DNA of 64,000 nucleotides, from positions 128,001 through 192,000 of the forward strand of contig CBFHTA010000002.1 in NCBI GenBank assembly GCA_965658655.1, read 5' to 3'. The position numbers were made by a program, and so were the translations under genes. Source of the stretch: Candidatus Babelota bacterium. GTDB lineage: Bacteria; Babelota; Babeliae; Babelales; CAIQNR01. How positions within the stretch are numbered: position 1 is the first letter of the stretch; each line of letters begins with the position of its first letter. Under the pieces are notes generated by a model. That model was not told the DNA's origin, searched no databases, and saw nothing but the letters and a program-made list of their open reading frames with translations. Positions 22,690 to 48,133 of this stretch are shown in pieces.

Positions 22690-23874
22690 CTAATAATACC
22701 TTGGAGCCGTTTGTTCGAAGTTCCGCTGACGAATTATTTCTCTTTGCCCTTCTTTTTTGGTTTCAATTTCCTTTAATGTTTCATTTATACTATCAATACG
22801 TTCACTAAGAAACCTTTTCATACTCTTTCCATCTCTTCGATCTCTGATTGATTCTCTTCCACTAATTGATTCAGTTTGCAATTGCCCCCATTGTCTTTCT
22901 AACCGAGATCTTAAAGCCTGAAGTTCTTCAGGACTCTTGCTGCTTTCTGCCTTTGTCATTTCTCCATTTGTTTGTCTCATAAATTCATCTATTGCATTAT
23001 CACGGCTTGCTTTAAGTTCATTTTTATAGGTTTGATCATCATCAATTTGACCATCCTGCCAGCTTTTGTTTCTTTCTACCATACGATCAAACAAACGATC
23101 TTGGTCTGTTTTTAAGCTTGGTCTTTGAAGTTTTTCTAATTTTGTACCTATCTCATCAATACGTTGCTTAACGAAGTCCTCCATACTTTCTTCACCGTTT
23201 TCATCTGTTCCACCTGTGATTGGTTCTTTTTCCAAACTCTCCAGCTGTCTTTCTAACCGAGACCTTAAAGCCTGAAGTTCTTCAGGACTCTTTCTGATTT
23301 CTGCCATTGTCATTTCTCCATTTGTTTGTGTCATAAATTCATCTATGGCATTATCACGGCTTGCTTTAAGCTCATTTTTATAGGTTTGATCATCATCATT
23401 TTGACCATCCTGCCAGCTTTTGTTTCTTTCTACCATACGATCAAACAAACGATCTTGGTCTGTTTTTAACCTTTGGGTTGAAGTGCGCTTGTCAGAATTT
23501 GTAAAATCTAACCCACGAGAATCTGAAACTTCAGCAACCTTTTTAACTATTGAAGCACTATCTGTTCCGTCGGCATTTACGCTTGAAGCATCAACGCTTC
23601 CTTCCATGGAAACAGGACTTTCTGCACCGCTCCCTCTACCAAACCACGATTTAATTCTATCGAAAAAACCGCGTTTTCGGGGTCTTTCTAATGTAGTGGT
23701 ATCCCTATCGTCACCTCTTTCGGTATCATGGTCACCATCTTGACCATCTGAATGATCTTGCTGATTCCCATTGTCACCAGTATTGTGTTCTTCAATCACT
23801 TCGCCATCCATAGCGGACAAAGAAAGGGGGATTGCAACTGCTAAAAGCAATAATGCCAATATATTTTTCTTCAT
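22690..23874 (-). CDS. secreted MD...RGL-family protein with internal duplication
   Basis: Signal ending LSA-MD; RGLDF at residue 120; two copies of a ~75-aa unit. Confidence 0.8.
   Translation of the reverse strand: MKKNILALLLLAVAIPLSLSAMDGEVIEEHNTGDNGNQQDHSDGQDGDHDTERGDDRDTTTLERPRKRGFFDRIKSWFGRGSGAESPVSMEGSVDASSVNADGTDSASIVKKVAEVSDSRGLDFTNSDKRTSTQRLKTDQDRLFDRMVERNKSWQDGQNDDDQTYKNELKASRDNAIDEFMTQTNGEMTMAEIRKSPEELQALRSRLERQLESLEKEPITGGTDENGEESMEDFVKQRIDEIGTKLEKLQRPSLKTDQDRLFDRMVERNKSWQDGQIDDDQTYKNELKASRDNAIDEFMRQTNGEMTKAESSKSPEELQALRSRLERQWGQLQTESISGRESIRDRRDGKSMKRFLSERIDSINETLKEIETKKEGQREIIRQRNFEQTAPRYY
22892..23469. repeat. intragenic direct repeat, ~224 bp x2 (22892-23115 and 23246-23469), period 354 bp
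   Basis: Near-identical DNA encoding LKTDQDRLFDRMVERNKSWQDGQ...SPEELQALRSRLERQ twice. Confidence 0.95.
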
Positions 23875-23884
23875 AACCTCTCCT

Positions 23885-25381
23885 CTATTTAAACCAACCT
23901 CTAGCTCTTCCTCTTTCTGCTACTTTACTCACGGCTTCAGGATTATCACGTCTCCATTGTTCAAGCTGTTCCGAATCCCTACGCGCTTCTCGTTGTTCAT
24001 CCGTAAGCGACCGACTCCTTCTTGATGGATCTGTTGTATTATCTGTTCCCAAATTATATCTTTCCCTCAACGCATTATTTCTCAATTTTTGGTAAGTTTG
24101 CATATGTTGTTGCTCTCGTTGCATTTTTTGTTCTCGAGTTAACCTTTCAGCTTTTCTTCTATAACCCACTTCTCTATCTAATGATTTCACTTTAGTATCA
24201 AGGTAATTATCACCAGTATGCTGAGTATAATCCTTAGTAGCAAAGTCCTCGGCGCCAAATCCATCGTTCCTTATCATCGCTAGGTTAGCGCTCTTTTTTA
24301 GATCTGCTTCTCTATTTCTTTGATATTCAAGATGCTCTAAAAGAGCAGTTTTTTGTTCAGGAGTTTCAGCATCACGTATAAGTGTGTCTACCTGTTTTTT
24401 ATATTCTATTTTTGCATTACCAAGTTGTTTTCGTATATCCACTCTATTGTCGCCTTCAAACTTGTTATACAAGTTTGAAATTTTATTGAATATTTTTCTT
24501 TCCTCTTTAAATTTATCGTCATAGGAATGAACGTCTTTCTCTTGCTGTTCAACATAACGAGCTCGATCAGCATTATCTTCGAACGTTGCTGACTTCTTCA
24601 ACATTCGCTCTGCTTGCCTTCTTGTAAGATGATCCCCACCCTGTTCACCCTTTGCAATACTCTTGAGCTGAGCTTCTCTTGCACCTTGAGACTTTAATCT
24701 ATCAAGTTTAAATTCTTCTGCAGTATGTGGTGTTACCCCATCTGCATTATTTTCTATGTTTTCTGTTCCACCAGTACCTTCACCTCGCATTCCCTTTAAT
24801 ATTTCTCTGGCACGTGCATGTTCTCCAGATCTTGAACCATCTGCTAATATTTCCCTTGCTTCATCACGCAAGTTATCATTTGATTCTTTAAAATCTTCTT
24901 CAAATGTGTTCCTCACATTGTCCATATCTTTTTCATATCCATCGTACTCAATACTAGAATCGTTTTTTGCATTGTGCCATGCGTTTCGAGCTTTTTCTCT
25001 TTTTTCAAGATGAAAATCTAACCCACGCAAAGTTGAAACTTCAGCAACGTTTTCAGCTATTGAAGCACTTTCTCCTGTGTTGGCAACAGCACTTGAAGCA
25101 TCAACCGAACCTTGCATCTCAACAGGTGTTTTTGAACTGCTCCCTCCGCTAAACAATGAACGGATTCTATCAATAAAACCTCTTCTTTGAGGCTTTATTG
25201 AGGTATTGTTATCAACTACATCTCGCTCGTTGTCACCATTTTGACCATCTCGACCATCTAAATTATCTTGCCGATTCCCATTGTCACCAGTATTGTGTTC
25301 TTCAATCACGCCATCCATAGAAGACAGAGAAAGAGGAATTGCAACTGCTAAAAGCAGTAATGCCAATATACTTTTCTTCAT
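23885..25381 (-). CDS. secreted MD...RGL-family protein
   Basis: First ~120 aa closely similar to 22690..23874; RGLDF at residue 119; charged helical C-terminus. Confidence 0.8.
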   Translation of the reverse strand: MKKSILALLLLAVAIPLSLSSMDGVIEEHNTGDNGNRQDNLDGRDGQNGDNERDVVDNNTSIKPQRRGFIDRIRSLFSGGSSSKTPVEMQGSVDASSAVANTGESASIAENVAEVSTLRGLDFHLEKREKARNAWHNAKNDSSIEYDGYEKDMDNVRNTFEEDFKESNDNLRDEAREILADGSRSGEHARAREILKGMRGEGTGGTENIENNADGVTPHTAEEFKLDRLKSQGAREAQLKSIAKGEQGGDHLTRRQAERMLKKSATFEDNADRARYVEQQEKDVHSYDDKFKEERKIFNKISNLYNKFEGDNRVDIRKQLGNAKIEYKKQVDTLIRDAETPEQKTALLEHLEYQRNREADLKKSANLAMIRNDGFGAEDFATKDYTQHTGDNYLDTKVKSLDREVGYRRKAERLTREQKMQREQQHMQTYQKLRNNALRERYNLGTDNTTDPSRRSRSLTDEQREARRDSEQLEQWRRDNPEAVSKVAERGRARGWFK

Positions 25382-25422
25382 CCTATGCCCTCCATCTTAT
25401 TCGCTTCTTTTGTTCATTACAT

Positions 25423-26562
25423 TTAAAATTTCCACCATTTTCTTTTCTTGTACGTTTCCGCTAAATCGTTCATATTATCATCAAATTCCTGTGCACTGTT
25501 TTGCATTCTCTCTGAAGTTTCTGCCCCCTGTTGTACTCGCTCTGTTCTTTTAGCCATACCTGCATCAAGAGCTGTACCTTGCCCTTGTTGCATCCGGGCA
25601 GCACGTCTTGCTTTTGCTGTATCAAGCGCTGCTCTCATTTCAGGAGTATAACGACCTCTTATTGGCTGACTTTCCAAATTATAACGGTTAATTCTGCCTT
25701 CATTATTCCCTATGTTTTGACCCCTTTGGTTAAGGTCTGAACCTGAAAATCCTTCACTGTTTCTGGATATTCTCGGGTTAAATTGATCTGCTTCATCTTG
25801 GATATCTTTAGCACTTTTCGCTTTTTCGGTTGGTTCCTCTGTTCTTCCAAATAAGAACCAACTTCTTTTTTTTCTCTCTCTAATTTGACTAGTACGCTTT
25901 CTTAACTCATTATTAACTCTATCTATATTTTTTAAATAAAGATCCATTTCAGATGATCTAGATGTACCACCTTCATATCCTTTATTAAAGTCATCTTCCA
26001 GAGCTTTTCTTTTATCGTTCAAAGCGTTCATTTCATCAAACGCTGAATCACTTCTTCCACCCCACCAAGATCTCTTATACTTACCTTTAAAACTAACTGC
26101 ACCATTTTCGTCGATATTTGCAGTAAGATTTAATCCACGATTTGCAGTTCTAGCTATATTTGCTTCTGACTGTTCTGCTGAGGGTGCATTGGATTGATTA
26201 ACGGTTGAATCCATATCTTGGCCAACAATCTCTGCAGGAACATTTTGTGAACCTCTTTCAGGCACATTACTACTTCGGCTAAACCATCCACTTTTTTTTT
26301 CTGTTCGCCTTGTGCTTGTTTCAGTAAAACGACTCATACCATCTGCTAGATTATTTGCCTTTTCCATCAAGCCGTCTGAACTTGGCTGGCTCTCTTGAAA
26401 TCGTTCGATTCGATTTCTAAAGTCGTCTACAGGCGGTGCTTCATTATCACCACTCATACCTAAACCCATACTATCCGGCTCAGTAGGCGGTTCAAAACCA
26501 TCCATTGCGCATAGTGAATTTGCTGAAATAAACAATAGTAAAAATAAGCTTATTTTTTTCAT
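25423..26562 (-). CDS. secreted MD...RGL-family protein
   Basis: Signal ending LCA-MD; RGLNL at residue 142; ends KKRKWWKF. Confidence 0.8.
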   Translation of the reverse strand: MKKISLFLLLFISANSLCAMDGFEPPTEPDSMGLGMSGDNEAPPVDDFRNRIERFQESQPSSDGLMEKANNLADGMSRFTETSTRRTEKKSGWFSRSSNVPERGSQNVPAEIVGQDMDSTVNQSNAPSAEQSEANIARTANRGLNLTANIDENGAVSFKGKYKRSWWGGRSDSAFDEMNALNDKRKALEDDFNKGYEGGTSRSSEMDLYLKNIDRVNNELRKRTSQIRERKKRSWFLFGRTEEPTEKAKSAKDIQDEADQFNPRISRNSEGFSGSDLNQRGQNIGNNEGRINRYNLESQPIRGRYTPEMRAALDTAKARRAARMQQGQGTALDAGMAKRTERVQQGAETSERMQNSAQEFDDNMNDLAETYKKRKWWKF

Positions 26563-26696
26563 TTTCTTTCTCCATTTTTTCCAGTCCCTATTGCTTAAGC
26601 TTGAGACTTAAATCTATATGTTAAAAGAATAACAATTTGGGAAGACCAAAGTAAAGAGAAAGCCCTGAAAAGGGCATCCTAAGCTTATTATGAGAA

Positions 26697-27185
26697 TTAA
26701 ACAGTCACCGTATTTTTAACAGTAGAAAAAATTGAGCTTATTTTATTAGACACGTCACTGAGTACCATTTTAGCCTTATTCAAGAAGTAAACGCGTCGTG
26801 TGTGCTTATGTTGCTTGTAGTCTTCAAAAAGACGATAGCGCACTAAAAAAAGACGAGTATCCCTTGACTGAGAGTCAATATCAACCTGTTTATTTTCTGA
26901 AAGAATATTGTAATGTTTTTTGTTTTTAATCTCCAAACTACTCATTCCATCCATCCGTAAACGACGCAATCGTTTTTGTCTACGAGACAAAGAAAGGCGG
27001 CTTTGACGATCTAAAAAATTACTGTAATAAGCCCTAAAACCTTCTTGCTCATTAGAATCTGGGGTCATACGTGTAATAAAATCATCGAGCGATTCTTTAA
27101 AAACATGCGCGCTGGGCACAAAGGCTGTGAGTTGAGAGAGACTGGTAAGTGCCAATACAAGCACAAAAGAGTTATGCTTCTTCAT
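26697..27185 (-). CDS. hypothetical exported basic protein
   Basis: AAGGA RBS, signal-like N-terminus, Arg-rich RRQKRLRRLR stretch. Confidence 0.65.
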   Translation of the reverse strand: MKKHNSFVLVLALTSLSQLTAFVPSAHVFKESLDDFITRMTPDSNEQEGFRAYYSNFLDRQSRLSLSRRQKRLRRLRMDGMSSLEIKNKKHYNILSENKQVDIDSQSRDTRLFLVRYRLFEDYKQHKHTRRVYFLNKAKMVLSDVSNKISSIFSTVKNTVTV

Positions 27186-27211
27186 ACTTCTTTCCTTTCT
27201 TATAAAAGAAG

Positions 27212-28597: not shown

Positions 28598-28689
28598 AGT
28601 GCCCTCATGTACAAATTGAGTAGTAACTTATAAGAAAAGTGTAGCATTATTAAAATAAAATAACACTCAGATTACCGTTATGCAAAGGT

Positions 28690-30007: not shown

Positions 30008-31027
30008 TTAACTGAACAGTTCAGGTTTATACGTTAAGCGGCGAGATCGCTCCCACGCAACAATGAAGTGGTGAAGATCGTAACGTTGATTAACTTCAGA
30101 ATGCGTATCAAAAGCTGGATCGTAACACAGTACTTTCTTATCTTTTGCATCAAAACCAACAACTACAAGAAGGTGCCCTTGTTTATACTCTTTTTTTCCG
30201 CCAGGAATACTTCCACGAATACTTACAGCAACAGGAACATTCTGTTTAAGTAATGCATGCAGATCATGAAAAGAGTTTAAACGTGTAGTATAAAACAAAG
30301 CATGACCATGTCCTTTTTCAAACGCATGCGCCATATTAAGCCCCCAGTTGCCAAAAATATCGAGCCCTTCATCGTATACGTAGTTAGAGAAGAGCAATGG
30401 TTCCATTTTTTTACCGGTTAATGTTTCTACCATCATGCTCACCGATGTTGGAGAGCACAATGCATTTGCACGAGGATGGTCTATCATAATTTGCGATTTC
30501 TTTGGGACATTAGAAACACGACACGAATCAAGGTTTTTACCGCGTCCATTGTAAGGTTCAATTTTAAAACGAGTAAAATCTGCTGCAGCTACCATAACAC
30601 CTTTTAGAGATCCTAATGACACTTTCTTTCCATCACGAGCAACCTTTACTTGAAACGCAGATCCTTTTTTATTGTTCTCCATTTCTAATCGTGCATATTT
30701 AAAGACTGAATGTTTACCGCGACTAAAATGTGATTTCTGTATATTAGAACCCCACTCAACCATTTTGTGCCATTTATCCCACGTACCAGTTTTTTGATCC
30801 TTCACGCGAACAGAGAAGGTAAACGCTCCCCGTTTGGGACGATGTGCATTCCACGAGAAAACAAGCTGAGTAAATGGCATGGCATCATAATGCGATATTT
30901 GTAATTCTTCTTTTCGTTTATTGGCATGCATTTGTTGATCTGAATAAACATGCTTATACGTGCGTGACCACGGTTCTTTTGCCTGTAAACTTACAATACT
31001 CAATAATATTAGAATTGCCTTCTTCAT
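30008..31027 (-). CDS. exported peptidase C39-like protein
   Basis: SQ...CSPTSVSM (Cys), GHLLVVVGFD (His) and YDPA (Asp) motifs; signal peptide. Confidence 0.8.
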   Translation of the reverse strand: MKKAILILLSIVSLQAKEPWSRTYKHVYSDQQMHANKRKEELQISHYDAMPFTQLVFSWNAHRPKRGAFTFSVRVKDQKTGTWDKWHKMVEWGSNIQKSHFSRGKHSVFKYARLEMENNKKGSAFQVKVARDGKKVSLGSLKGVMVAAADFTRFKIEPYNGRGKNLDSCRVSNVPKKSQIMIDHPRANALCSPTSVSMMVETLTGKKMEPLLFSNYVYDEGLDIFGNWGLNMAHAFEKGHGHALFYTTRLNSFHDLHALLKQNVPVAVSIRGSIPGGKKEYKQGHLLVVVGFDAKDKKVLCYDPAFDTHSEVNQRYDLHHFIVAWERSRRLTYKPELFS

Positions 31028-32313: not shown

Positions 32314-32408
32314 CGAATTAGATGCGAAGTCAATAAGAACAATCAGAACGTTATGCTTTTTGCGTAGCTCATGCAGCAAACAGTATTGGTAGTGAGACAA
32401 TGAAAAAA

Positions 32409-32490: not shown

Positions 32491-33435
32491 TTAATGCTGG
32501 TGAACAATAACACGCGATTGGCGTTGATTTGCAGGAATATATTGTTGCAAAATATGCCTTACCGCTTTTAATCTTGCATATTGTTCAAGGGTTTTCATTG
32601 CACAATAACTTGCCATATTATACGTTGCAGTATACAACCAAGGGCGTCTAAAGTAGCAGTCTTCTTTAAAGAATAAACCAATAGTTGGTGAGTTACTTAT
32701 CCATGAGTTGCTTGCATACTCCTGTAAGATATCTTCTGAATAAAGGGTAATGTCATCTGTAATGAGAACATCACCATCAAGTAACGCTCTTGTATCAGAA
32801 TCTTGGTCAATCATTCTTTGAGCAGTAAGCTCTACAATATTGGTGTAAGATTCATACATTTTTAAACGTTTATCAAGTTGCGTAAGTGCAGTATCAACTT
32901 TTTTAATTGCTTCAAGAGGAGATGCATTTTGCTCAAGACCCATATTAAAAAAAAGCTGTCTTTTTAAAGCTTCTCTACCACCAGGGTAATGGGCAAGTTG
33001 ATTCATTAATTCAGCTGCTGTATCACACTCTGCCCATCTATTTCTTAAAACTAGATTTGTACTTGTATTTTGACGTTTCATTTTTCTTAATTGAACACCA
33101 AAGGTACAATATCGCCAGAGCATTGCACTATGATACAATGCCGCAAAACCATGAGCAGCGAGAGAAATCTTAACAAGATTACTTGGTGCAATTTCTTGAC
33201 CAGCAATTTTAAAAACTTCTTTAGCAGTTCCTTCTACAGATTCAGCGGTAAAAGCTTTATAACCTTTGAAACTAAGATACCCAAGACCAGCATGCGCACT
33301 CCAACCAAAAGCGCCGTAACCCAGTTCTTTGGTTACTCCACAAACAACATCGCCCAAATCAGCAGAGATACCTGCTGGAAGAAGTACCAATAAACTTAAT
33401 AAATATTTTTTATAAGATTTTATAACCATAACCAT
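32491..33435 (-). CDS. hypothetical exported/membrane protein, paralog of 33704..34531
   Basis: Signal peptide; shared RN.W and A..C....L.QY.R..A......QY motifs. Confidence 0.75.
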   Translation of the reverse strand: MVMVIKSYKKYLLSLLVLLPAGISADLGDVVCGVTKELGYGAFGWSAHAGLGYLSFKGYKAFTAESVEGTAKEVFKIAGQEIAPSNLVKISLAAHGFAALYHSAMLWRYCTFGVQLRKMKRQNTSTNLVLRNRWAECDTAAELMNQLAHYPGGREALKRQLFFNMGLEQNASPLEAIKKVDTALTQLDKRLKMYESYTNIVELTAQRMIDQDSDTRALLDGDVLITDDITLYSEDILQEYASNSWISNSPTIGLFFKEDCYFRRPWLYTATYNMASYCAMKTLEQYARLKAVRHILQQYIPANQRQSRVIVHQH

Positions 33436-33703: not shown

Positions 33704-34531
33704 TTATCTAGCTTTAAGATTCAAATTAATAGCTTGAGCCTGCGTAGCTGGAACCAAATATTGCTCCATAACACGTTGAATTGCACGAATACGCGAATAC
33801 TGCTTAAGAACCTCAAAAGTACATTCTGCAGCTTTCTTATGCGTCCAAGTAAACCAATACGGTATACGTGTTCCAAAAGTAGGAGACCAAGTATATTTAA
33901 TATCAATTGGCAAGAGCGTATGATCCATGTACTCATTGAATGCTTTTTCTACAGGAGAAAATCTAAAAGCTGAGAATGTAGATGAAACCAATTGATGATC
34001 AATAATATAATCAGATGTAATCAATTCTTGAGGATTTTTAGCAAAACCTGCCTCACGGGCCATGTTAAGGAGAATAGGAGTGAGAAAAGCATAACTATTA
34101 AGCTCTGCTTGTAATGCAACCAAGGATGAATCAAGCGCATCAGATACTAAAAGATGAAAGTTTGGAGCATTACGATCTATACCTTCTGCTCTGCAGATTT
34201 CTTCTAATAGTTGTTGTCTAAAGGTATCTTTTTCTTTTCTTGTACTCAGTTGAGTAAAGCATCCCCATAATGCGTATCCTGAAGTAAAATCATAAGGAGA
34301 AACCCATACGTTACGCTCACTGAGTGTCCCCACTTTTTTACACATTTGTAGTTCATCTAAACGAGTTCCCATGTTCCACCATTGAGCTACGGTTGTAATA
34401 CCACCAGCACCAAGTGCACCTATTGCAACGGTACTTAACACTTTGCTCGTTGTACTAACCTCTGCTTTTGCTTGCTGTGAAACACACATTAATACACACA
34501 ACAGTGCTCTGCTATACTGTTTTTTAATCAT
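33704..34531 (-). CDS. hypothetical exported/membrane protein, paralog of 32491..33435
   Basis: Signal ending AKA, Gly-rich hydrophobic helix, shared C-terminal motif. Confidence 0.75.
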   Translation of the reverse strand: MIKKQYSRALLCVLMCVSQQAKAEVSTTSKVLSTVAIGALGAGGITTVAQWWNMGTRLDELQMCKKVGTLSERNVWVSPYDFTSGYALWGCFTQLSTRKEKDTFRQQLLEEICRAEGIDRNAPNFHLLVSDALDSSLVALQAELNSYAFLTPILLNMAREAGFAKNPQELITSDYIIDHQLVSSTFSAFRFSPVEKAFNEYMDHTLLPIDIKYTWSPTFGTRIPYWFTWTHKKAAECTFEVLKQYSRIRAIQRVMEQYLVPATQAQAINLNLKAR

Positions 34532-35905: not shown

Positions 35906-38900
35906 TTAGAAATTCACCTGGCCACCCTTAACACGAACACGGCTTACATCTTTGCTAAGGTTTCTAAGATTTCTAATATTCCCTCGTTCTTTTCTCGTTC
36001 CCTCTGTATACCCCTGGTACAGATCATTTATTCTTTCTTTCTGCTGCCCAGTCAAGCGATTATAATAATCTTTTCCTCGAAGATCATCTAAGCTTCTGCC
36101 TCTTTCTTGATACTTTTTTGCTCTACCAAGTGTTTTGTTCCAATCATTCGTATTTTTTCTTTGTTTTCTTTTTTCCATGTTCAGGCGTTCTGGATCTGTG
36201 TCAAGATTGTATAGAGACTCTTGTTGTACCTCTTCGGGGCTCATACCACTAATCTGATTAAGCATATCTCTTTGAGGATCTGTAGTGCTCTTTCCTCCAC
36301 TACCAACACTGGTTTCTGACTGTCCTGCAAGAGACGAACTATCATAGTCAGGAACTGTATCATCTTGAGATTCAGGATCCTCACTCCATGACTTATTACC
36401 CGACAATTGATCTGATAATAAGTTACTACTTGCTTCAATACGCGCTTGCTTTGCTTTATTTAAATCTGCTTCAATACGCACTTGCTCTGCTGCGGATTGT
36501 TTTCCTTTATATCCCGATTGGTTTTCTTGCCATCTCTTAAAATTCTCGCCTTTTGCACCGCCATACCTATCTTCCATTCCAGGAGTCTGAACAAAACTAG
36601 AATCAGACTGTGCTGGCTGCGAATCACTTTCTGAAACCCAATCTGGCCTTAGATAATACTTACCTGCAAGATTAATACCATTCTGAGAAGCATACTCTCG
36701 TGTCTCAGTATAAAGTTCTTTTAATTTAGGATTATCTTTAAGTAATTGGCTAGCATCTGCAGTATTTATCTGTTCCATTAAACTGCCAATTTTAGCAACG
36801 GTGTATTCATCTTTTCCATCTTGCTTAATAGTTGCAAGACGACTTTCCAAAAAATCTAATGTTACATTTTTCAGTAGATCCTTAACCTGATCTATTTCAC
36901 CTTGTTCTAACTGACCACTATTACCTTCAAGGAAACTTTCTAATTCTCGTTTTAGTTTACTCAATGCTTTATTTTTTGTTTCAAAATCTCCATAATCTCC
37001 ATTTTTGATATCTTCAAATCGTTGGTTAAAGTCCTGTACTTTTTTTGTACGAGCCTGCTTTGATGCTTCTTGTTGACGCGCAAGAGCTTCTTCTTGTTCT
37101 CGTTGCTGCCTACGATACTCCTCTTGCGTTCTAGTAGCTTCTTCTTGTATTTTTTGCTTTCTAGTAGCTTCTTCTTGCTTTTTCCTAGCAGCTTCTTTTT
37201 CCCTTGATAATCGCTCTTGATTTAGTTTCTCCCTTGCTGTGCTTTCTTGTTTTATACGATTATCAAAATCATCTAACTCTTTTTGAGATACATTAAGGAT
37301 GTTTTGAGATTCATCTATCTGATCTTTAAACTGGTTGTTATTCTTATAAAAATTAAGTTGACCACTAGCACTGTCTACTTTTGCCTGTAAGCGCTTACGC
37401 TGCTCTTGAATGTCTCCCCATTGGTCAACTCGAAGTGTTCCATTCTTATATGCACTGCTATCCATAGCTCTTTGTATGTTTTCAAAACGTTCACCACTCA
37501 CCAAACCTCCTTCTAATTTATTTCTTAAAAGTGATAAATCGTATTTTTGTTGCTTGGTAGTATATTCTCCTTTACGAAGACGACTTTCTACCTGTTGCAA
37601 TCGCTCTTCAGTTGCGTCAGGACCACTTTTACCCAAGTCTTTTGAAACAGAAAGTGAATTAATCCAATTGTTAATTTGTTCTTGTAAGGATTCCCCATTT
37701 TTTTGTTTTTTTGTATACCAGTCAGGTGGATCTTGCTCATAAGTAGTTTGTATTTCTTGTAAACGAACCATTTCTTCTTTTGGATCTAAACCAGCAGTTT
37801 GATTTAAACCAGAACGAATATGCTTATTTAAGTTTTCTGAACGCTCAATTGGATTTGTAGATCTAGATTTTTTCATAAATTCATCTCTTAGACGATCTAA
37901 ATCTTCAAGGGAACTCTTTACCCTACTTTCCTGGGCGTCGCGTAGCGTATCAGCATTCTTTTGATTATCTTCAGAATCAGCAATCTCTTGCGCTTCACGT
38001 AAACTTTTCATTGAAGCATGATTCATCATGTTACTAGAAGGCTCTTCCACCAAAAGAGTTGCTGCTAAAGCATTCTCTTCTTTAACTCTCTGCTCTTCTC
38101 TGCGATCAGCCTCTCCATGAATAAGTGAGTGCCAATCAGAATCTTTTTTTGATGAATCAGTAGTAGCCCACTGATTAACACGATCCCTTAAATTTCCGTA
38201 AGCATCTGTGACGCCATTTTTCAATTCATCAATACCACTCGAAATCCCAGCAAGAGTGTCCGATTGCCCTTCGCGTGTTGAAACACGGCGTGCCAAGTTA
38301 CTCAATCTGTTCAACGTCTCTGCATCAGGAGTATAAACTCCTGCTTTTATACCATCAACACCCGCTTGAGCATATTGCCTTAACCCTTCAACTCCATCTT
38401 TAATTTGACGTTTCAAACCATCACTTGTGTGTTTTGTCCAATTATTTAATCTATCTTTTATCGTTTGCATATGATCATTAACAACTTGTGTTGTACTTCG
38501 CATATTAGTTCTACGTGATTCCAATTGTTTTATCACACTGCTTAACTTTTTAATCTTATCGTCATATTCCGGTTTAGTTAGATCAGTTTTTTTCAATTCA
38601 TATTCAAGATTTTCTGCTTCTGCCGATAATGCATATATCTCTTTGCGTGTTTTTCCTCCACCCCAATAATCATTAAATCGATCTGCCCAGGTTTTCAATA
38701 CCCCCTTTTTTTCATTATTATTAAAATTATCACTAAAGCCTACCTGATCACCGTCATACGTAACACTTTTACCTCTAAACACCTTGTTGTTTAATTCTCC
38801 AAGGTTGAGACCTCTTTCTGCTTCTTTTGTTGTCATTGGACTTTTATTATCATCACCTACACTAATGCTAGAGGTTGTACCAATATCTGTGCCAGTTATA

Positions 38901-39172
38901 GCTTTTGGTGCTTTTGCTGATGAAGCTTTACCCGAAAATTGCCACCACTTACGATGACTCTGAGACTGCTCCCCTGATTGGCTCGATAACTCGCCATAGT
39001 TTTCGCTAAGATCTCCTTTATTACCCTCTATTTCTGCTTCCTCTGAAGATTGTTCTGGGCCATCAGCTGAAGTAATAGCAGGATCTACAGGTGCCTTAAC
39101 TGGAGCATCCATAGAAAACACTGGTGAAATATTTATTAACAAAACGATTAATAATACTTTGAAACTCTTCAT
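35906..39172 (-). CDS. secreted MD...RGL-family coiled-coil protein (1088 aa)
   Basis: Signal ending PVFS-MD; RGLNL at residue 120; long charged helical regions. Confidence 0.85.
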   Translation of the reverse strand: MKSFKVLLIVLLINISPVFSMDAPVKAPVDPAITSADGPEQSSEEAEIEGNKGDLSENYGELSSQSGEQSQSHRKWWQFSGKASSAKAPKAITGTDIGTTSSISVGDDNKSPMTTKEAERGLNLGELNNKVFRGKSVTYDGDQVGFSDNFNNNEKKGVLKTWADRFNDYWGGGKTRKEIYALSAEAENLEYELKKTDLTKPEYDDKIKKLSSVIKQLESRRTNMRSTTQVVNDHMQTIKDRLNNWTKHTSDGLKRQIKDGVEGLRQYAQAGVDGIKAGVYTPDAETLNRLSNLARRVSTREGQSDTLAGISSGIDELKNGVTDAYGNLRDRVNQWATTDSSKKDSDWHSLIHGEADRREEQRVKEENALAATLLVEEPSSNMMNHASMKSLREAQEIADSEDNQKNADTLRDAQESRVKSSLEDLDRLRDEFMKKSRSTNPIERSENLNKHIRSGLNQTAGLDPKEEMVRLQEIQTTYEQDPPDWYTKKQKNGESLQEQINNWINSLSVSKDLGKSGPDATEERLQQVESRLRKGEYTTKQQKYDLSLLRNKLEGGLVSGERFENIQRAMDSSAYKNGTLRVDQWGDIQEQRKRLQAKVDSASGQLNFYKNNNQFKDQIDESQNILNVSQKELDDFDNRIKQESTAREKLNQERLSREKEAARKKQEEATRKQKIQEEATRTQEEYRRQQREQEEALARQQEASKQARTKKVQDFNQRFEDIKNGDYGDFETKNKALSKLKRELESFLEGNSGQLEQGEIDQVKDLLKNVTLDFLESRLATIKQDGKDEYTVAKIGSLMEQINTADASQLLKDNPKLKELYTETREYASQNGINLAGKYYLRPDWVSESDSQPAQSDSSFVQTPGMEDRYGGAKGENFKRWQENQSGYKGKQSAAEQVRIEADLNKAKQARIEASSNLLSDQLSGNKSWSEDPESQDDTVPDYDSSSLAGQSETSVGSGGKSTTDPQRDMLNQISGMSPEEVQQESLYNLDTDPERLNMEKRKQRKNTNDWNKTLGRAKKYQERGRSLDDLRGKDYYNRLTGQQKERINDLYQGYTEGTRKERGNIRNLRNLSKDVSRVRVKGGQVNF

Positions 39173-40990: not shown

Positions 40991-41002
40991 GGCACTTCCC
41001 AA

Positions 41003-41551: not shown

Positions 41552-41654
41552 AATCGTATCCTCTCTGTTACGACGTTAATAATTGTTTATCATTACACTT
41601 TTTTGTCGATCTGGTCAATGAATTGGCGTTTTTAAACTACTTATATACCACTCA

Positions 41655-41766
41655 CCGTGGATCGCTCAAGAGGCACTTGTTTCCCCCTAAGAACGCAAGA
41701 CATACACTTACACTTTAATCGATTTCTAAAAAAACGATAACCCAGTGCCTGGAGCCTATTCCGTGG
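41655..41766 (+). ncRNA. candidate structured RNA (long interrupted hairpin)
   Basis: CCGUGGA/UCCGUGG, GCUC/GAGC and AGGCACU/AGUGCCU nested pairings in a non-coding gap. Confidence 0.35.
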
Positions 41767-41840
41767 CTAAGACCACCTGCGCTTTGCAGCAAAGACTTTT
41801 TACTTAATAAACTATTATGTATAAAAAATAGAATGAAGAA

Positions 41841-41917
41841 TGGTGCGCCTGGCAGGACTCGAACCTGCAACCAACGGATTCGAAGTCCGGTACTCTATCC
41901 AATTGAGCTACAGGCGC
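41841..41917 (-). tRNA. tRNA-Arg(TCG), CCA encoded
   Basis: GCGCCTGTAGCTCAATTGGATAGAGTA-CCGGA-CTTCGAA-TCCGT-TGGTTGCAGGTTCGAGTCCTGCCAGGCGCACCA. Confidence 0.93.
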
Positions 41918-42102
41918 ATAATATATAGAATACTGCAAAATCTTAGACAGAGCAATCTGAAACTTACTTATCTTCCAGTCCTAAAGTCGACCACTCAACT
42001 AAACCAGGGTATTTGAGTCACCTTGACGAACAGCTTCATGTTTAACAGAGCGCCCTCTACTTCATTATCCTGAGCAGGATGAAAGTTGTTTTATACAAAA
42101 CC

Positions 42103-42813
42103 TTAATCGCGCCCAAGTAACCTATACAAAAACGCTTGATCATCGCCTGCTAAATAACCGAATGGTACTAAACCGCTCTCTCCCAAAGATTCTTTTAGAA
42201 TGCGGTCTCCCTCTTCATTCACAACAACATCATTGAATGCTGCTGCTCCCGGCTCTCTTAAATCTTTGTCGGCTGAAGAAGATGCTGCGGTACTCTTTCT
42301 ATCTTCAAAACCTTTTTTACAAGTCTTTATTTTTTTCAAAAAACATTTTGATGTATGAGTCTTAAACATATCTGGCCTCATATAACTACCTTTGCAGTAA
42401 GAACAAAAATAACTGGGACTAGCACCGTGCTTTTTACTTTTTTCCACATGCCTTTTAACCTCATCTGGTCGTGCAAAAGAATTATTACATTTAAGGCACC
42501 CAAACCTAATTTTTAATTTCTTTAAGGCCATAACTTCAGCATTATGTTTTCTTGAAAATTGTTTTTCTCCTACGCTCCATGTCCTTGTACGTGGAACGTA
42601 AGTTAACAGTTCTTGAGCTTTCTTCTTATAATTATCTTCTGTTAAGCCTTTATCGTAAGGCAGCAATAAATTATATCCATCCATTTCATAAGACATATAT
42701 TCAGAATGAGATTGCGTTTTTTTTCCCTCTAAAGGAATATTTGCAGCCGAAATGTTAGTAATAGATAAAATAATTCCACTAAAAATAATAAAAAAACTGT
42801 TTTTATTCTGCAT
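42103..42813 (-). CDS. secreted protein with two C2H2/C2HC zinc-finger-like motifs
   Basis: Signal ending ISA-AN; CLKCNNSFARPDEVKRH and CSYCKGSYMRPDMFKTHTSKC. Confidence 0.75.
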   Translation of the reverse strand: MQNKNSFFIIFSGIILSITNISAANIPLEGKKTQSHSEYMSYEMDGYNLLLPYDKGLTEDNYKKKAQELLTYVPRTRTWSVGEKQFSRKHNAEVMALKKLKIRFGCLKCNNSFARPDEVKRHVEKSKKHGASPSYFCSYCKGSYMRPDMFKTHTSKCFLKKIKTCKKGFEDRKSTAASSSADKDLREPGAAAFNDVVVNEEGDRILKESLGESGLVPFGYLAGDDQAFLYRLLGRD

Positions 42814-42912
42814 TAAAAATTGCTTTCTTTAGTTGTTGCTGATCTTCCACTGAATCATCCTTACCCTCTGCTTTATTATTCTGAGTAGGATGAAAGTTTT
42901 TATACGAAAACC

Positions 42913-43635
42913 TTAATCACGCTCCAGTGAACTATCCAAAAACGCTGGGTCATCGCCTTCTAAATAACCGAATGATACTAAACCGCTCTCTCCCAAAAAT
43001 TCTTTTAGAATGCAATTTGCCTTTTCATTCAAAAAAACATCATTGAATGCTGCTGCTCCCGGCTCTCTTGAATCTTTGTCAGCCGAAGAAGGTGCTGCAG
43101 CGCCCTCTCCATCTTCCATTTGTTTTTCTAAAGTATCTTTTTTTCCCCAACAGCACTCTTTTTTATGCCCCTGAAGAAGATCTTCTCTCCAAAACTTCTT
43201 GTTACAGTCACCACAACAATAGCTGGGTTTACAGCCATACTTCCGACTTCTTGAAACATGCGTTGCAAGCTTACTTACTTCTGAAAAAGACTCATCACAA
43301 AAAAGGCACCCAAACCTAACCCCTAAATCTCTTAATACCACTATTTTAGCTTGCTTTTTTTCTGTGTATTCTTTTTTTCCTGCTCGCCATTTTTTTGTAT
43401 GTGGATTTTGTGTTACTAGCTTGTTAGCTTTATCTTTATAATTATGGATTGTTAATCTTTTGCCGCAAGGCAGCAATACATTATACTTTGGCTTTTTATG
43501 AACCACATATCCCTCAACTCTCATTGTTTTTTGCTGTAGAGGAGGATGAATAAAAGGTATATTTGCAGCCGAAATGTTCATACTAGATAACATAATTCCA
43601 CTAACAATAATAAAAAAACTGTTTTTATTCTGCAT
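42913..43635 (-). CDS. secreted zinc-finger protein, tandem paralog of 42103..42813
   Basis: Near-identical termini; CLFCDESFSEVSKLATH and CGDCNKKFWREDLLQGHKKEC. Confidence 0.75.
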   Translation of the reverse strand: MQNKNSFFIIVSGIMLSSMNISAANIPFIHPPLQQKTMRVEGYVVHKKPKYNVLLPCGKRLTIHNYKDKANKLVTQNPHTKKWRAGKKEYTEKKQAKIVVLRDLGVRFGCLFCDESFSEVSKLATHVSRSRKYGCKPSYCCGDCNKKFWREDLLQGHKKECCWGKKDTLEKQMEDGEGAAAPSSADKDSREPGAAAFNDVFLNEKANCILKEFLGESGLVSFGYLEGDDPAFLDSSLERD

Positions 43636-44386
43636 TAAGAATTATCTCCTCTAGCTGTTTTTTATCTTTCATTAAATTATCCTCCAGTTCATGGTTGAGT
43701 TGACGATGCAATAGTTGCAACTCTTTACACTGTTTGCTTGGTTTTCTCTGTAAAAATGTACTAATTATATTTTGATGTTCTATAGTTTCTACGTGATCTT
43801 GATAACTCTCTCTACTAGCATAAGAAAAAAAAGTTCCTAAAGACAAACTGCACTCAAGACATTCCCTCTTTTTTCCTTTTAGCTTTCTGCCTTTTTGGAT
43901 TAATGATATTAACTTTTTATGGGTGGAGACCGAAACTTTCTGTGCGGGACCATCTTTGCCTTTTTTCACTCCCAATCCGTTATTCATTACTGAATTAACA
44001 AGAGCACCTTTACATTCTTTTTCTATATGTCTATAACATTTCCCATACCTATCAAAAAGACACTTACAAGACTTACACTTCCAACTGGTCAAATGACTCT
44101 CTACATGAGCATTGATTCCGCTTTTTGCCATTCCTTTACCTTGTCTACCCAAAGATAAAGTGCAATCCGGCCAAAGACACTCGTATCTACCTTCACCATA
44201 AGGCTCTATCCACTTGTCTACGCCTTCGACTAATCCACATAATGGCTTTCTTGTAATGTTATCTATCTTGACCATTAAGTTTCTTCTATCCCTGTATGCG
44301 CGTGAATATTCACATTTCTCATTTTTATCTGCTGCCCCTACTGATGATTGATTAATACATAAAAATAAAAGAACTATCCGCTTCAT
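43625..44386 (-). CDS. secreted protein with three zinc-finger-like motifs
   Basis: Signal-like MKRIVLLFLC; YECLWPDC...HVESH, CKSCKCLFDRYGKCYRHIEKEC and CLEC...HVETIEH. Confidence 0.7.
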   Translation of the reverse strand: MKRIVLLFLCINQSSVGAADKNEKCEYSRAYRDRRNLMVKIDNITRKPLCGLVEGVDKWIEPYGEGRYECLWPDCTLSLGRQGKGMAKSGINAHVESHLTSWKCKSCKCLFDRYGKCYRHIEKECKGALVNSVMNNGLGVKKGKDGPAQKVSVSTHKKLISLIQKGRKLKGKKRECLECSLSLGTFFSYASRESYQDHVETIEHQNIISTFLQRKPSKQCKELQLLHRQLNHELEDNLMKDKKQLEEIILNAE

Positions 44387-44662
44387 ATGCGCCTTCCACA
44401 AATAAAATTACATTATTTTTGTGCATAGACTTTCCATGCGTTATATAGATATAAAACATTTTATTTTATACGCAACACTAAAGGATAATTCAATACTCTA
44501 AGCAAGTCGCTTCTTATAGCACAAACAAAAATCATGGTGCTCATAAGCAACGTAATGAATCATATTGCCCTCACTTTAGACATTTAGCCACAACCTGAAT
44601 GTAAATACTAGTGGATGTCACCTTGATTCTTTAGTAATTCTAATTCTCCTCCCTATTGACTA

Positions 44663-45229
44663 TTATCTTTTATGTGCCATTTCTCGAGAAGTAGCAAATC
44701 CACTATAAGAAGTATAAAAAGGACCTTTCAAAGATTGCTGCCACCCGTCAACCTCATGATGTTGAGAAGCTATATGTGAAGCCATTTTTTCATAATTACT
44801 ACGGGTCTCTTTGCACACAGCACACTGAGTTTTTCCATATTTTAACATCTCAACATTGCATCTCAAAGAGGTTCTTAACCTATCTTGTTCTGTTATTGTT
44901 AATAACTTTAAAGATGCACCATCTTGTTTATAAGCATACTCAAAAATATCATCCGATACGCGTGCACCAATTAATGCAACTTTCTTCGTTTTACCACGCG
45001 CTTTCTTAGATACACTTTTCTGAGCTCCTGAATCATTACTAGATTTGTTTTTATTTAAACCGGATTCTCTTTTTAATCTTGCTTCTTCTTTCTTTTTTAC
45101 ATCAAGCATTTCAGCCATTATAGAAACTACGCTTTTTTCTCTATCAGTAAGAACAGCTTGAGTACCTCCAGACATAACAGATACTGTCACCAAGCTTAAA
45201 CCCATAAAAAATACTAATTTCTTACTCAT
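44663..45229 (-). CDS. secreted basic protein with one C2H2 zinc finger
   Basis: Signal-like N-terminus; CAVCKETRSNYEKMASHIASQH (C-x2-C-x12-H-x4-H). Confidence 0.7.
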   Translation of the reverse strand: MSKKLVFFMGLSLVTVSVMSGGTQAVLTDREKSVVSIMAEMLDVKKKEEARLKRESGLNKNKSSNDSGAQKSVSKKARGKTKKVALIGARVSDDIFEYAYKQDGASLKLLTITEQDRLRTSLRCNVEMLKYGKTQCAVCKETRSNYEKMASHIASQHHEVDGWQQSLKGPFYTSYSGFATSREMAHKR

Positions 45230-45445
45230 TTTGATTCTTCTCCATATTGACTATTTGTAAAACAACAAGATTAAGTCTAACAAGAAAGCCTATCCCGTCA
45301 ACTAATTAGCTTATTCAAGCATAAAAGTAAATAAGGTTAAAATGACTTTATGTGTAATTTAACATAAGTATAAATACAACCTTTTGACGACATGTACCCC
45401 AGGGTCTATACTTATAGAAGGTGTTTAAATCGATTGGGGGATACC

Positions 45446-46057
45446 ATGTTGAGTGAAAAAAATCTTATTCGCGACGGATTGTGTTTAGTTGTTTTGGTGT
45501 TTTTAGTACGCCATGTATTTACGCAACAATATATTAAACACGCATCAAAAAGAACGCTCGCAAAACATGCTGTAAATATACAAATGAAAAAAATTAAAGC
45601 TAGTGTTTCTAACACTGCTTCAAAAGTGAAAAAGCATGTTAAAAAAGGGGTGCGTACTACCATCAATTCAAAACAAGCTCAACTAGAAGAACATACTAGT
45701 GCTTTATTACAACAACTTAAAAATGCACAAGAAGCCCTTGATAAAACAGATCTTTTAACAGACAAAGAACGCACAACATTAGCACTCGACATTAAAACCA
45801 TTCGCTCTCATATTGAACACATAAAAAAAGAATCTTCTAAAGAACCTCACGAGTTGGGATTGCTCTCTGGACCAGCGTTAACAACAGCTAAAGAAGTACA
45901 CAAACGCAGCTTGGATAAAAAGCTATTACAAGCTACAAACAACACCAGCTTTGTTCTTTTAACCCTATACAACGAAATATTGGGACAGGACAAAAAAATA
46001 AACCCCGCAACATCTGTGTCACAAGGTTTACAACGTAATCAATCACTACTTATTTAA
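45446..46057 (+). CDS. hypothetical membrane-anchored helical protein
   Basis: GGGGGA RBS before ATG 45446; one hydrophobic segment followed by a basic coiled-coil-like region. Confidence 0.55.
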   Translation: MLSEKNLIRDGLCLVVLVFLVRHVFTQQYIKHASKRTLAKHAVNIQMKKIKASVSNTASKVKKHVKKGVRTTINSKQAQLEEHTSALLQQLKNAQEALDKTDLLTDKERTTLALDIKTIRSHIEHIKKESSKEPHELGLLSGPALTTAKEVHKRSLDKKLLQATNNTSFVLLTLYNEILGQDKKINPATSVSQGLQRNQSLLI

Positions 46058-46162
46058 TTTAGTTATCATCTGAAAGTTGCTGGCTTTCTTGGCTCAGCGT
46101 ATCCGTTACTTCCTGATTTGCTGCACTTCCAAAGTTTCTTCTACCGGTCGTATTTTTTTAGT

Positions 46163-48133
46163 TTACTCGTCAAGGTCATCTGGGTCATACGGCTCATAAT
46201 TTAAATCATCTTGCATACCATGTTTTGGACCTTCAACCTCTGTCTGCTCGGGTGTAAAAATATTATTTCTAGCTTCATTTTCAGCTTCTAACTTCTTCTG
46301 CGCTGCCTCCATATCTTTTGCCCGGTTGCTTTTGATTCTTGCTTCATCAGGTCTCTTTAAAAATGATTGAAATTCTTTTTCTTCTTCCTCTTCATTCAGG
46401 ACTCTATCACCATCATCATCATCGCTTCTACCATTACCTTCCATCTCACTCAAAGCACGATCCATCTCGTTAGGATCGAAATCATTAGGATCGACATCAT
46501 TATCATCGGTACTACTTGAACCTTGTTCCCCTAAATCTAAAATATTACCATCGGTGCTACTTTCATTTCTATCGAAATTACCAAGATTTAAAGTTTGAGA
46601 ACCATCATCGTCATCGTCATCATCGTCGTCATCCCAGTCATCCTCTTCGCCATCATCGTCGTCATCCCAGTCATCCTCTTCGCCATCATCATCGTCATCA
46701 TTATTGCTGCTATTAGACACATTTTCAGGTGCCTGATTGCGATCACGAAGAGCATTTTTCAGGCCTTCAGCAAGAATATCACTATAGCTATCAACAGTTG
46801 CAGCGTCTGAATAAGGTGTTAACAACTCTTGTGCTTTTGTTTCAAGTTTATCCACTTTCTTACTTAACGACTTTCGAGAACGATTATCTTCAGGTAACTT
46901 TTGAATTTTTTCTTTAAGACCATCAACTCTTAATCGTAGCATTTCATCTTTTATGTCTCGTACCTTTATACGAAGTTGTGCATCATTCGGACGAGCCTTT
47001 TGTTTAGCCTCTACATCTGTAAGTTCTATTTGCTTTACACTAATAGATTCCGCTGTTTCTGGTGATATATTGTATATGGTGGCATTACGCTGAGCACCTT
47101 CAACCATCTCTTCTTGTTTTCTCAATGCACTATCAATATCTGAATTAAGATTCTCAACAGAAGTAAAAAGCTTTTCTCTTTTTTTATCAACCGCATCAGC
47201 GGCATCTCTACCAACTTTCCCTAATGTTTTGCCACTCTTTCTTTCTTCAATTTCACGATCAAGGCGAGCAATACCCCCTTTTTCAAGAGCACCTTGACTT
47301 ACCTTGCCATACTCTCTTAAACGACCTTCAATTGTATCCAAATCTGCATCTGTTCTTGCTCTGTCTATTTCCCTTGAAAAACTATCAACATTATTGGCAT
47401 CTCTCCCACTCCGGGTCCACGTACTTTCTGTTAATTTCTTACCATCTGTCTCTTCTCGAAGTACTTGGTTTGCACGATCTTCAAAATTTTGTAGTTGTTT
47501 CTCAACAAGAGCTTTTTGTTCTTCTGTAGGATTGTCTTCTTGTACCCATTGATCTATTCTCTTATTAATCTCATTAACTTTTTCTCTAATTACACCTAAT
47601 GATGACTCTGAAGTATCTCTCACTACACCAGTCCATGAAGAATCTATAAAATTAGACGATTGTTCTATTTCTTTAACAAAATCTTCAGCTTTTACAGAGT
47701 TATCCACATTTTTAGCTTCTTCAATTCTTCCCCTGTCACTTTCAAATTCTAGTCCACGCTCAGAACTTATAGCATCCGTAGCAACCTGTTCATTTGCACT
47801 TTCTTGCTCACTACCTTCCTCTAAACTCGAAGTTCCACCTTGCGCAACGTCCTGTAAACTTTCTAAAGATGTTGAACTTCCTGACGGGAAATCCACCATT
47901 CCTTCATCTGAAGATGTACGTGAAGGATTTTCATACAAACTTTCTGTATCATCATCATCATGATCAGGATCTACATTTTCGGGATCATCTTGCTCGCTAT
48001 CAGAATCACCAGTCTGTCTAGTTATATCAGTAGATACATCATGGTCTGGGGCAACGTCAATACCATCCATCGACCATAGAGCAATTGAAGTACTTAATAA
48101 TAAAAATAAAAGTAAACGAATATTTTTTTTCAC
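46163..48133 (-). CDS. secreted MD...RGL-family acidic protein with WASP-like central-acidic motif
   Basis: Signal ending LWS-MD; RGLEF at residue 126; ILAEGLKNALRDR followed by (DDDDGEEDDWD)x2. Confidence 0.8.
   Translation of the reverse strand: MKKNIRLLLFLLLSTSIALWSMDGIDVAPDHDVSTDITRQTGDSDSEQDDPENVDPDHDDDDTESLYENPSRTSSDEGMVDFPSGSSTSLESLQDVAQGGTSSLEEGSEQESANEQVATDAISSERGLEFESDRGRIEEAKNVDNSVKAEDFVKEIEQSSNFIDSSWTGVVRDTSESSLGVIREKVNEINKRIDQWVQEDNPTEEQKALVEKQLQNFEDRANQVLREETDGKKLTESTWTRSGRDANNVDSFSREIDRARTDADLDTIEGRLREYGKVSQGALEKGGIARLDREIEERKSGKTLGKVGRDAADAVDKKREKLFTSVENLNSDIDSALRKQEEMVEGAQRNATIYNISPETAESISVKQIELTDVEAKQKARPNDAQLRIKVRDIKDEMLRLRVDGLKEKIQKLPEDNRSRKSLSKKVDKLETKAQELLTPYSDAATVDSYSDILAEGLKNALRDRNQAPENVSNSSNNDDDDDGEEDDWDDDDDGEEDDWDDDDDDDDDDGSQTLNLGNFDRNESSTDGNILDLGEQGSSSTDDNDVDPNDFDPNEMDRALSEMEGNGRSDDDDGDRVLNEEEEEKEFQSFLKRPDEARIKSNRAKDMEAAQKKLEAENEARNNIFTPEQTEVEGPKHGMQDDLNYEPYDPDDLDE
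46621..46686. repeat. 33-bp perfect tandem repeat x2 inside an Asp-codon tract
   Basis: CATCGTCGTCATCCCAGTCATCCTCTTCGCCAT repeated twice. Confidence 0.9.

Follow-up and report, generated by a model that had tools for sequence, protein, structure and literature searches.

The window analyzed here, a stretch of 64,000 nucleotides, corresponds to C2:128001-192000 of a 928,713-base, four-contig genome (95% complete) from the order Babeliales of the Dependentiae, which are widespread intracellular parasites of protists. Relatives of its DnaA are nearly all labeled TM6, Dependentiae, or Babeliales. Among public sequencing runs, two DNA data sets from a single study of marine plankton metagenomes contain the sequence, and one of these may be its source; no RNA data set was listed. 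The window carries five genes, designated A to E, whose products share an exported N-terminal leader that ends in the tripeptide Arg-Gly-Leu (RGL) and is followed by a dissimilar body, here called the cargo. A first-pass annotation of the same DNA had singled out these genes as a secreted family with a motif, RGL[DNE][FL], at a set distance behind the signal peptide, and had read the motif as a candidate export or processing signal of host-directed effectors. All five open reading frames (ORFs) are present where the annotation placed them, all on the minus strand, and the residue numbers that it gave for the motif Arg and the DNA coordinates derived from them are correct (Table 1).

By inspection, the N termini of A to E are of the Sec type, with Lys or Arg, a hydrophobic run of 12-17 residues, a small residue and then Met-Asp; the signal peptides end in SA-MD, SS-MD, CA-MD, FS-MD or WS-MD, as the annotation had summarized with [AS]-MD. 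The N-terminal helix predicted in both of the AlphaFold models described below agrees with a Sec-type signal peptide. The spacer that separates signal peptide and motif in the five proteins comprises 94-117 residues with a net charge of -7 to -28 and 35-39% Ser/Gly/Thr/Asn, and the basic/aromatic patches reported for it (RGFFDRIKSWF, RRGFIDRIRSLF, KKSGWF, and RKWWQF) are present. The description of this spacer as acidic and Ser/Gly-rich holds for its composition; the spacer is, however, not featureless but holds several aligned blocks.

Table 1. Family members, leader modules, and protease-like neighbors. Coordinates are window positions, except those with the prefix C1 or C2, which are contig positions.
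Feature	Coordinates	Strand	Remarks
Member A	22690..23874	-	394 aa; signal peptide, leader, RGLDF at residue 120, helical cargo with internal duplication
Member B	23885..25381	-	498 aa; RGLDF at residue 119; orthologs P0009, P0013
Member C	25423..26562	-	379 aa; RGLNL at residue 142; four basic/aromatic patches including C-terminal KKRKWWKF
Member D	35906..39172	-	1088 aa; RGLNL at residue 120; orthologs P0011, P0014, P0018
Member E	46163..48133	-	656 aa, GTG start; RGLEF at residue 126; poly-Asp tracts in cargo
Leader module of A, residues 1-124 through RGLDF	23503..23874	-	RGLDF codons 23503-23517
Leader module of B, residues 1-123	25013..25381	-	RGLDF codons 25013-25027
Leader module of C, residues 1-146	26125..26562	-	RGLNL codons 26125-26139
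Leader module of D, residues 1-124	38801..39172	-	RGLNL codons 38801-38815
Leader module of E, residues 1-130	47744..48133	-	RGLEF codons 47744-47758
Extra member	C1:6966-9878		RGLDL at residue 118
Extra member	C2:70830-73529		True start at residue 31; RGLYL
Extra member	C2:73717-75159		VGLDL
Extra member	C2:78198-79628		True start at residue 13; RGLTL
Peptidase_C39_2-like exported protein	30008-31027	-	E 2e-17; syntenic in same-genus contig L026
Two tandem HtrA/DegP-type proteases, Trypsin_2 + PDZ	51400-53031, 53116-54711	-	3-6 kb from member E

The genome holds nine members in total: a search with the leader alignment, combined with inspection of neighboring genes, added four more. A profile built from the nine leaders scores its members at E 1e-34 to 8e-59, with the best non-member ORF at E 0.0077. 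When each member was left out of the profile in turn and the signal peptide was removed, six of the nine were recovered at E 1e-4 to 8e-9, above all non-members; for A and B the close paralog was left out as well. Two candidates were rejected. The protein encoded at C2:57799-59172 has RGLNL at residue 284 and is not a member. Neither is the giant 2597-aa ORF on the minus strand of the window (4679-12472), which has a signal peptide ending in PVFS-MDA, as in D, and an acidic start, with no RGL block and no Pfam match. On the plus strand at C2:157-3237 of G000, three tandem paralogs of 263, 236, and 296 aa with near-identical signal peptides ending in NG-MDA form a separate family without RGL.

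The family is not confined to this genome. When 1.84 billion representative proteins were searched with the profile, 16 matched at E <= 0.001: seven of the source genome's own proteins, seven foreign proteins (P0008-P0014), and two short, low-complexity proteins, P0015 and P0016, which lack RGL and were discarded as compositional false positives. The seven foreign proteins, each known from a single contig in Logan or ENA metagenome assemblies, have the same layout, with R/G/L at residues 104-126. Their motifs read RGLSR, RGLDF, RGLRV, RGLRV, and RGLAP, and the two orthologs of B read QGNRLDSLF and RGNKLDTLL, with a two-residue insertion between the Gly and the Leu. P0014 had been called from the Met of Met-Asp, and its cluster mate P0018 carries the missing signal peptide. 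P0009 and P0013 are orthologs that are 41% identical, and the family is therefore present in at least two further organisms. Other searches were less productive: with residues 1-400 of D as query, or with the alignment of 16 leaders run against longer proteins, word-index searches found no proteins other than those of the window itself, and neither the 386 pattern matches of protein E to genome contigs nor the 590 pattern matches of the B/P0009/P0013 alignment to metagenome contigs included a relative. Within the order, a whole-leader profile matched 4 of 261 species-representative genomes, the source genome included; in G001, G015, and G124 only profile positions 1 to 65-116 of 177 were matched, and the cargo of D and of the member at C2:70830, used as queries, was not found in these three genomes.

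What is conserved in the leader can be read from an alignment of 16 sequences. The Gly of the motif is invariant, and the Arg and the Leu are each retained in 14 of the 16; three proteins deviate from RGL, with VGL, QGNRL, and RGNKL. The residues that follow vary among DF, NL, EF, DL, TL, YL, SR, RV, and AP. The RGL core of the pattern first proposed is thus conserved, whereas its fourth and fifth positions differ among relatives. The motif lies at residues 114-142 (mean 122, standard deviation 6.5), and the spacer in front of it measures 89-117 aa, with a net charge of -5 to -28 and 30-53% Ser/Gly/Thr/Asn. When columns are ranked by relative entropy, the highest beyond the signal peptide are the Met and Asp of the mature N terminus and the Arg, Gly, and Leu of the motif, followed by an aromatic residue ~10-30 residues past the motif, two aromatics of the basic/aromatic patch, and a P-x-x-[MIF]-x-G block located ~35 residues before RGL. 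The aligned blocks of the spacer are MD(G), the basic/aromatic patch, P-x-x-[MIF]-x-G, and a short segment immediately before RGL, and a weakly conserved block, N-x-[WF]-x-x-[AG]-[KR], is found ~10-30 residues beyond the motif. Across the nine genes, Arg is encoded by CGT, AGA, or CGA, Gly by GGG, GGA, or GGT, and Leu by TTA, CTC, CTA, or CTT; since the codons differ, the constraint is on the protein and not on the DNA.

The basic/aromatic patches are themselves a feature of the family, occurring at 2.6 per 1000 aa compared with 0.39 in other ORFs, a 6.6-fold difference. They are also found in the cargo and at C termini, where B, C, the member at C2:70830, and P0009 end in one. The hexapeptide RKWWQF is identical in the leader of D (residue 74; 38951-38968 region) and in the cargo of P0014 (residue 260), and patches of this type may represent a mobile, short membrane-binding motif.

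To find where similarity stops, the 16 proteins were compared with one another by BLASTP. Between orthologs the alignments take in most of the sequence, 278-924 columns (924 for the member at C2:70830 and P0012, 679 for D and P0011, and 278 for B and P0009). In non-orthologous pairs, by contrast, the alignment runs only from residue 1 to ~119-154, and the annotation's observation that the leader is shared while the cargo diverges after the motif is borne out. A and B are an example: over residues 1-124 the two are 64% identical, and past that point BLAST finds no relationship. At the DNA level their identity is 80-97% over nucleotides 1-147 from the ATG and 43-77% up to nucleotide 387; the RGLDF codons occupy nucleotides 358-372, and identity is at background within ~15 nucleotides past the motif, as it is upstream of the ATG.

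Predicted structures place a structural transition at the same point. In an AlphaFold2 model of B, computed with its two orthologs, the predicted local distance difference test score (pLDDT) is below 50 for residues 13-118 and 77-80 for residues 121-140, and RGL (residues 119-121) sits in the break between helices 104-117 and 121-140, after which the body is all-helical. A leader-only model, made for A with 16 sequences, contains the signal-peptide helix and helices 106-119 and 127-169 with a break at RGL, a disordered region over residues 28-102, and, within it, a low-confidence helix on the basic/aromatic patch (residues 70-79). In the two models the break at RGL spans 3-7 residues between two helices. 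The leader is conserved at the amino acid level, and RGL coincides with a module boundary and with a switch from disorder to order, marking the point where the mostly disordered leader that members share gives way to a variable, all-helical cargo. Within the cargo of A, residues 129-340 contain a direct duplication of ~120 residues (LKTDQDRLFDRMVERNKSWQDGQ...), and residues 168-250 match Pfam PF03682 (UPF0158) above the cut-off, at 33.7 bits.

The genomic setting of the family is variable. A, B, and C are flanked by two conserved genes, one of 162 aa that adjoins dnaA and one of 353 aa, and the A-B-C cluster (22690-26562) thus fills a variable slot two genes from dnaA. In L026, a contig of the same genus that holds the closest DnaA relative (88% identity) and has the same gene order, the slot (L026:5230-6640) contains a single 290-aa ORF, whose likeness to C is not significant (best E 0.42); in a more distant relative (L104:7390-7840; 67% DnaA identity) the slot is empty. 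The A-B-C cluster is therefore a lineage-specific insertion. The L026 record is labeled as an Alteromonas metagenome-assembled genome, but by gene content it belongs to the Dependentiae and is probably mis-binned or mislabeled. A second cluster, with three members, is found at C2:70830-79628. Elsewhere in the window, four tandem minus-strand ORFs at 42103-45229 (236, 240, 258, and 188 aa) have signal-peptide-like N termini and paired Cys...His residues that resemble eukaryote-type C2H2 zinc fingers; their only Pfam match, zf-C2H2_4, falls below the cut-off (E 6e-4), and it is possible that they are exported DNA-binding or nucleus-directed proteins. Also on the minus strand, 32491-33435 and 33704-34531 encode adjacent exported orphan paralogs (314 and 275 aa) with similar C termini and no Pfam match.

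Type II secretion system (T2SS) substrates are exported by Sec or Tat and are then released through a GspD secretin. The genome encodes two GspD-type secretins (124.8 and 113.9 bits) and one GspE-type (T2SSE) ATPase, and no OEP/TolC match was found in it. This agrees with the TM6 genomes described in an excerpt of PMC4776705, according to which T2SS parts and two gspD copies are present in all seven genomes analyzed. For a cultured marine parasite of the Dependentiae, PMC6561590 reports signal peptides on 44% of coding sequences; the passages concerned name no secretion system other than Sec and raise the budding of outer-membrane vesicles as a possible further route.

Collectively, these data define a lineage-restricted, fast-evolving family of Sec-exported two-module proteins in a reduced-genome member of the Dependentiae (Babeliales). 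Conservation across orthogroups and organisms is seen in the leader but not in the cargo, which argues for a common leader function that does not depend on the cargo. The explanation that we tentatively favor, and hold to be a little short of probable, is that the leader serves as a post-Sec sorting region or pro-region. Module 1 begins with the signal peptide and a conserved mature N terminus, Met-Asp(-Gly), continues as a chain of ~95 residues that is acidic, rich in Ser/Gly/Thr, mostly disordered in prediction, and furnished with a basic/aromatic amphipathic patch and the P-x-x-[MIF]-x-G block, and closes with a short predicted helix ending in Arg-Gly-Leu. Module 2 is the highly charged, all-helical cargo, unrelated between orthogroups. 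The leader would act in the periplasm, where it could keep the cargo secretion-competent and present it to an outer-membrane route; a secretin or vesicles would then carry the protein out. RGL, where the leader ends, would serve as a hinge, a docking site, or a point of trimming. We infer every step of this scheme that goes beyond a conserved module ending at RGL. A more specific form of it, in which the leader is a linear, transferable post-Sec address of roughly constant length that passes disordered or coiled-coil effectors from the inner membrane to one of the two secretins, or else a pro-region removed at RGL, we consider distinctly unlikely. Were that form correct, effectors of the Dependentiae would have, for the first time, an export or maturation code that can be read from sequence.

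Several observations weigh against assigning a sorting or processing role to the leader and its motif. A profile of the RGL block had, in effect, no match in the order's 260 other genomes, as the one match beyond the source genome scores 17 bits and contains a stop codon. In G001, a 90% complete genome of the same genus, at least seven leader-like proteins with a signal peptide, MD, ME, or MK, an acidic leader, and basic/aromatic patches cover profile positions 1 to ~116 and stop before the RGL columns; near the place of RGL they read, by eye, HGLLA, QVGLPE, QELGFT, or ARGNAAP. Within the family, VGLDL, QGNRL, and RGNKL indicate that neither the Arg nor the spacing of Gly and Leu is absolute. 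The members E, F, and C2:73717 were not recovered by the leave-one-out profile without signal peptide, and their membership rests on signal peptide, Met-Asp, motif, and composition. The leader occurs on only 9 of ~570 signal-like ORFs and is no general export tag. Moreover, the models are of low confidence, with a mean pLDDT of 59.0 for B (3 sequences) and 56.5 for the leader (16 sequences) and with 0.17 and 0.25 as the predicted template modeling scores of the two models, and linear signals are not known for T2SS substrates.

A rival account is structural. According to it, the proteins are ordinary divergent paralogs whose N-terminal domain has a job of its own, such as attachment to a membrane or surface through the basic/aromatic amphipathic patches or the display of a shared host-binding short motif, and RGL is a helix C-cap and hinge but no signal: the Gly would end the pre-motif helix, the Leu would pack back, and the Arg would lie at the helix C terminus. 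RGL does fall in the 3-7 residue break between helices in both AlphaFold models, and Gly, the residue expected at a helix-capping position, is the only invariant one; the change of Arg to Val and the Asn-Lys or Asn-Arg insertion are tolerated; weak conservation runs on for ~10-30 residues past the motif; the enrichment of patches, in cargo and at C termini as well, suggests membrane-binding proteins; and a genome of the same genus has leader-bearing proteins without the motif. A cap alone, however, leaves unexplained why similarity between orthogroups stops so sharply, and also why the spacer keeps to 89-117 residues although disorder is predicted for it, and the pre-motif helix itself is of low confidence (pLDDT 35-72). 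We regard this account as possible, if on balance unlikely. If RGL is only a structural hinge, the family would still illustrate how, in a reduced genome, a leader can be conserved while the cargo diversifies, and would still mark a variable effector island next to dnaA.

The first-pass annotation had compared the layout with that of PEXEL and RxLR signals. A reading in this sense, with RGL as a host-targeting element that is recognized or cleaved after release so that the cargo crosses a host membrane, draws on a likeness of layout. In both cases a signal peptide is followed by a spacer, an Arg/Leu motif at a fairly fixed distance and a fast-evolving cargo, and the leader is conserved across otherwise unrelated effectors; in addition, the phylum consists of intracellular parasites of protists. 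The position and the residues at places 4 and 5 fit neither signal. PEXEL is R-x-L-x-[E/Q/D], follows the signal sequence at a distance of a few tens of residues, and is cleaved after the Leu by an aspartyl protease of the endoplasmic reticulum, with N-acetylation afterward, whereas RGL is found 89-117 residues (~95 as a rule) behind the signal peptide, and its fifth position is Phe or Leu in the nine genome members and Arg, Val, Pro, Phe, or Leu in the foreign ones, never Glu, Gln, or Asp. In the RxLR-dEER leader the tetrapeptide is R-x-L-R, with the acidic dEER stretch behind it; here the acidic region precedes the motif, and the fourth position is Asp, Asn, Glu, Thr, or Tyr in genome members, with RGLR occurring in only two foreign members (P0011 and P0012). 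PEXEL and RxLR are, furthermore, signals of eukaryotic secretory pathways that mark hundreds of proteins, and RGL marks nine proteins of a single family in a bacterium that has an outer membrane, and was not detected in related genomes. A host-targeting role of this kind is improbable.

We give an equally low standing to the proposal that a leader peptidase of the periplasm cuts at RGL, in the way that C39 peptidases cut double-glycine leaders. Candidate enzymes are at hand inside the window, namely the Peptidase_C39_2-like exported protein and the two HtrA/DegP-type proteases with Trypsin_2 and PDZ domains (Table 1). Double-glycine leaders, however, have G-G, G-A, or G-S at positions -2/-1, a spaced pattern of hydrophobic residues upstream, and a length of ~15-25 residues; the RGL leader is ~100 residues long, has R-G, V-G, or Q-G before the putative cut, and in the aligned block shows, by eye, no hydrophobic pattern at -4/-7/-12. 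The C39_2 gene is also syntenic in L026, although the RGL block is absent from that genome, and HtrA proteases are near-universal housekeeping enzymes.

Occurrence counts bear on whether the motif could be fortuitous. Among 1311 ORFs of at least 80 aa, RGL[DNE][FL] occurs eight times compared with 1.66 +/- 1.29 in 300 per-protein shuffles, and six of the eight fall at residues 110-150, against 0.16 +/- 0.40 (maximum 2) in the shuffles; these six are paralogs and cannot be counted as independent. For the looser RGLx[FL] the genome as a whole shows no enrichment (15 occurrences, with 12.5 +/- 3.5 in shuffled sequences), but at residues 100-180 it is found 10 times, eight of them in family members, against 2.4 +/- 1.5 (maximum 6, 200 shuffles). 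The comparison with shuffled sequences that the annotation had called for thus yields a position-specific excess, and the family comparison is stronger evidence for the motif than any such count. A signal peptide followed by Met-Asp is not clearly enriched in the genome (18 of 571 signal-like ORFs, with ~15 as a rough, estimated expectation). That the motif arose by chance in low-complexity sequence or reflects a repeat at the DNA level, a reading that the biased composition of the spacer and the absence of genome-wide enrichment of RGLx[FL] might invite, is refuted by its recurrence in homologs from other organisms, by the differing codons of Arg, Gly, and Leu, which exclude a DNA repeat, and by the position-specific excess over shuffles, leaving a vanishingly small probability.

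With respect to described families, the annotation's statement that it knew of no bacterial motif like this one agrees with our searches: none was found in Pfam, NCBIfam, or the full text of papers outside subscription journals. For the five window members, no Pfam-A entry matched the leader, UPF0158 in the cargo of A being the sole match above the cut-off; NCBIfam gave nothing over its cut-off for 10 members, and the ESM Atlas gave no usable match for C. The leaders also do not conform to a lipobox, [LVI][ASTVI][GAS]-C at the signal peptide end, as a Cys is found there only in C, P0011, and P0018 (SLC-A, VLC-M, and ALC-M, respectively), where Leu precedes it. Taken together, the alignments and models partly support the interpretation first proposed, in that the layout and the boundary hold; a role as an export, chaperone-binding, or cleavage signal of host-directed effectors would go beyond them.

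Among known systems, several share parts of this design. The motifs of fungal Kex2-processed pro-domain (K2PP) effectors are Kex2 sites of the LxxR/KR type that are cut in the Golgi, whereas the motif here is R-G-L. In an excerpt of PMC8528282, the K2PP effectors of plant-pathogenic fungi combine a signal peptide, a disordered pro-domain, a boundary motif, and a folded effector, and their switch between disorder and order at the motif resembles that in the AlphaFold2 model of B. Phytoplasma proteins with the SVM (sequence-variable mosaic) motif, as far as the available account describes them, are likewise Sec-dependent candidate effectors of a reduced-genome bacterial parasite, with a conserved N-terminal module and variable mature parts. 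In phytoplasmas, however, which lack an outer membrane, the signal peptide is itself the SVM motif, while the module described here extends ~100 residues beyond the signal peptide; Pfam SVM_signal was not among the matches at E <= 0.1 for the five window members.

Polymorphic toxins carry demarcation motifs, such as VENN in CdiA and DPxGL in Rhs proteins, at the border between conserved part and variable cargo. RGL resembles these in that a short motif stands exactly where the conserved part ends, with a sharp drop in identity behind it, as in A and B. Polymorphic toxins differ in being delivered by type V or type VI secretion systems or as Rhs proteins; their conserved bodies are large and immunity genes accompany them, features that are absent here. 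A modular leader that ends at a defined tripeptide before unrelated cargo offers a concrete and cheap experimental handle. Thus, the RGL-terminated leader is a new, lineage-restricted modular leader built on a conserved-leader, variable-cargo design that is already known from eukaryotic and some bacterial effectors.

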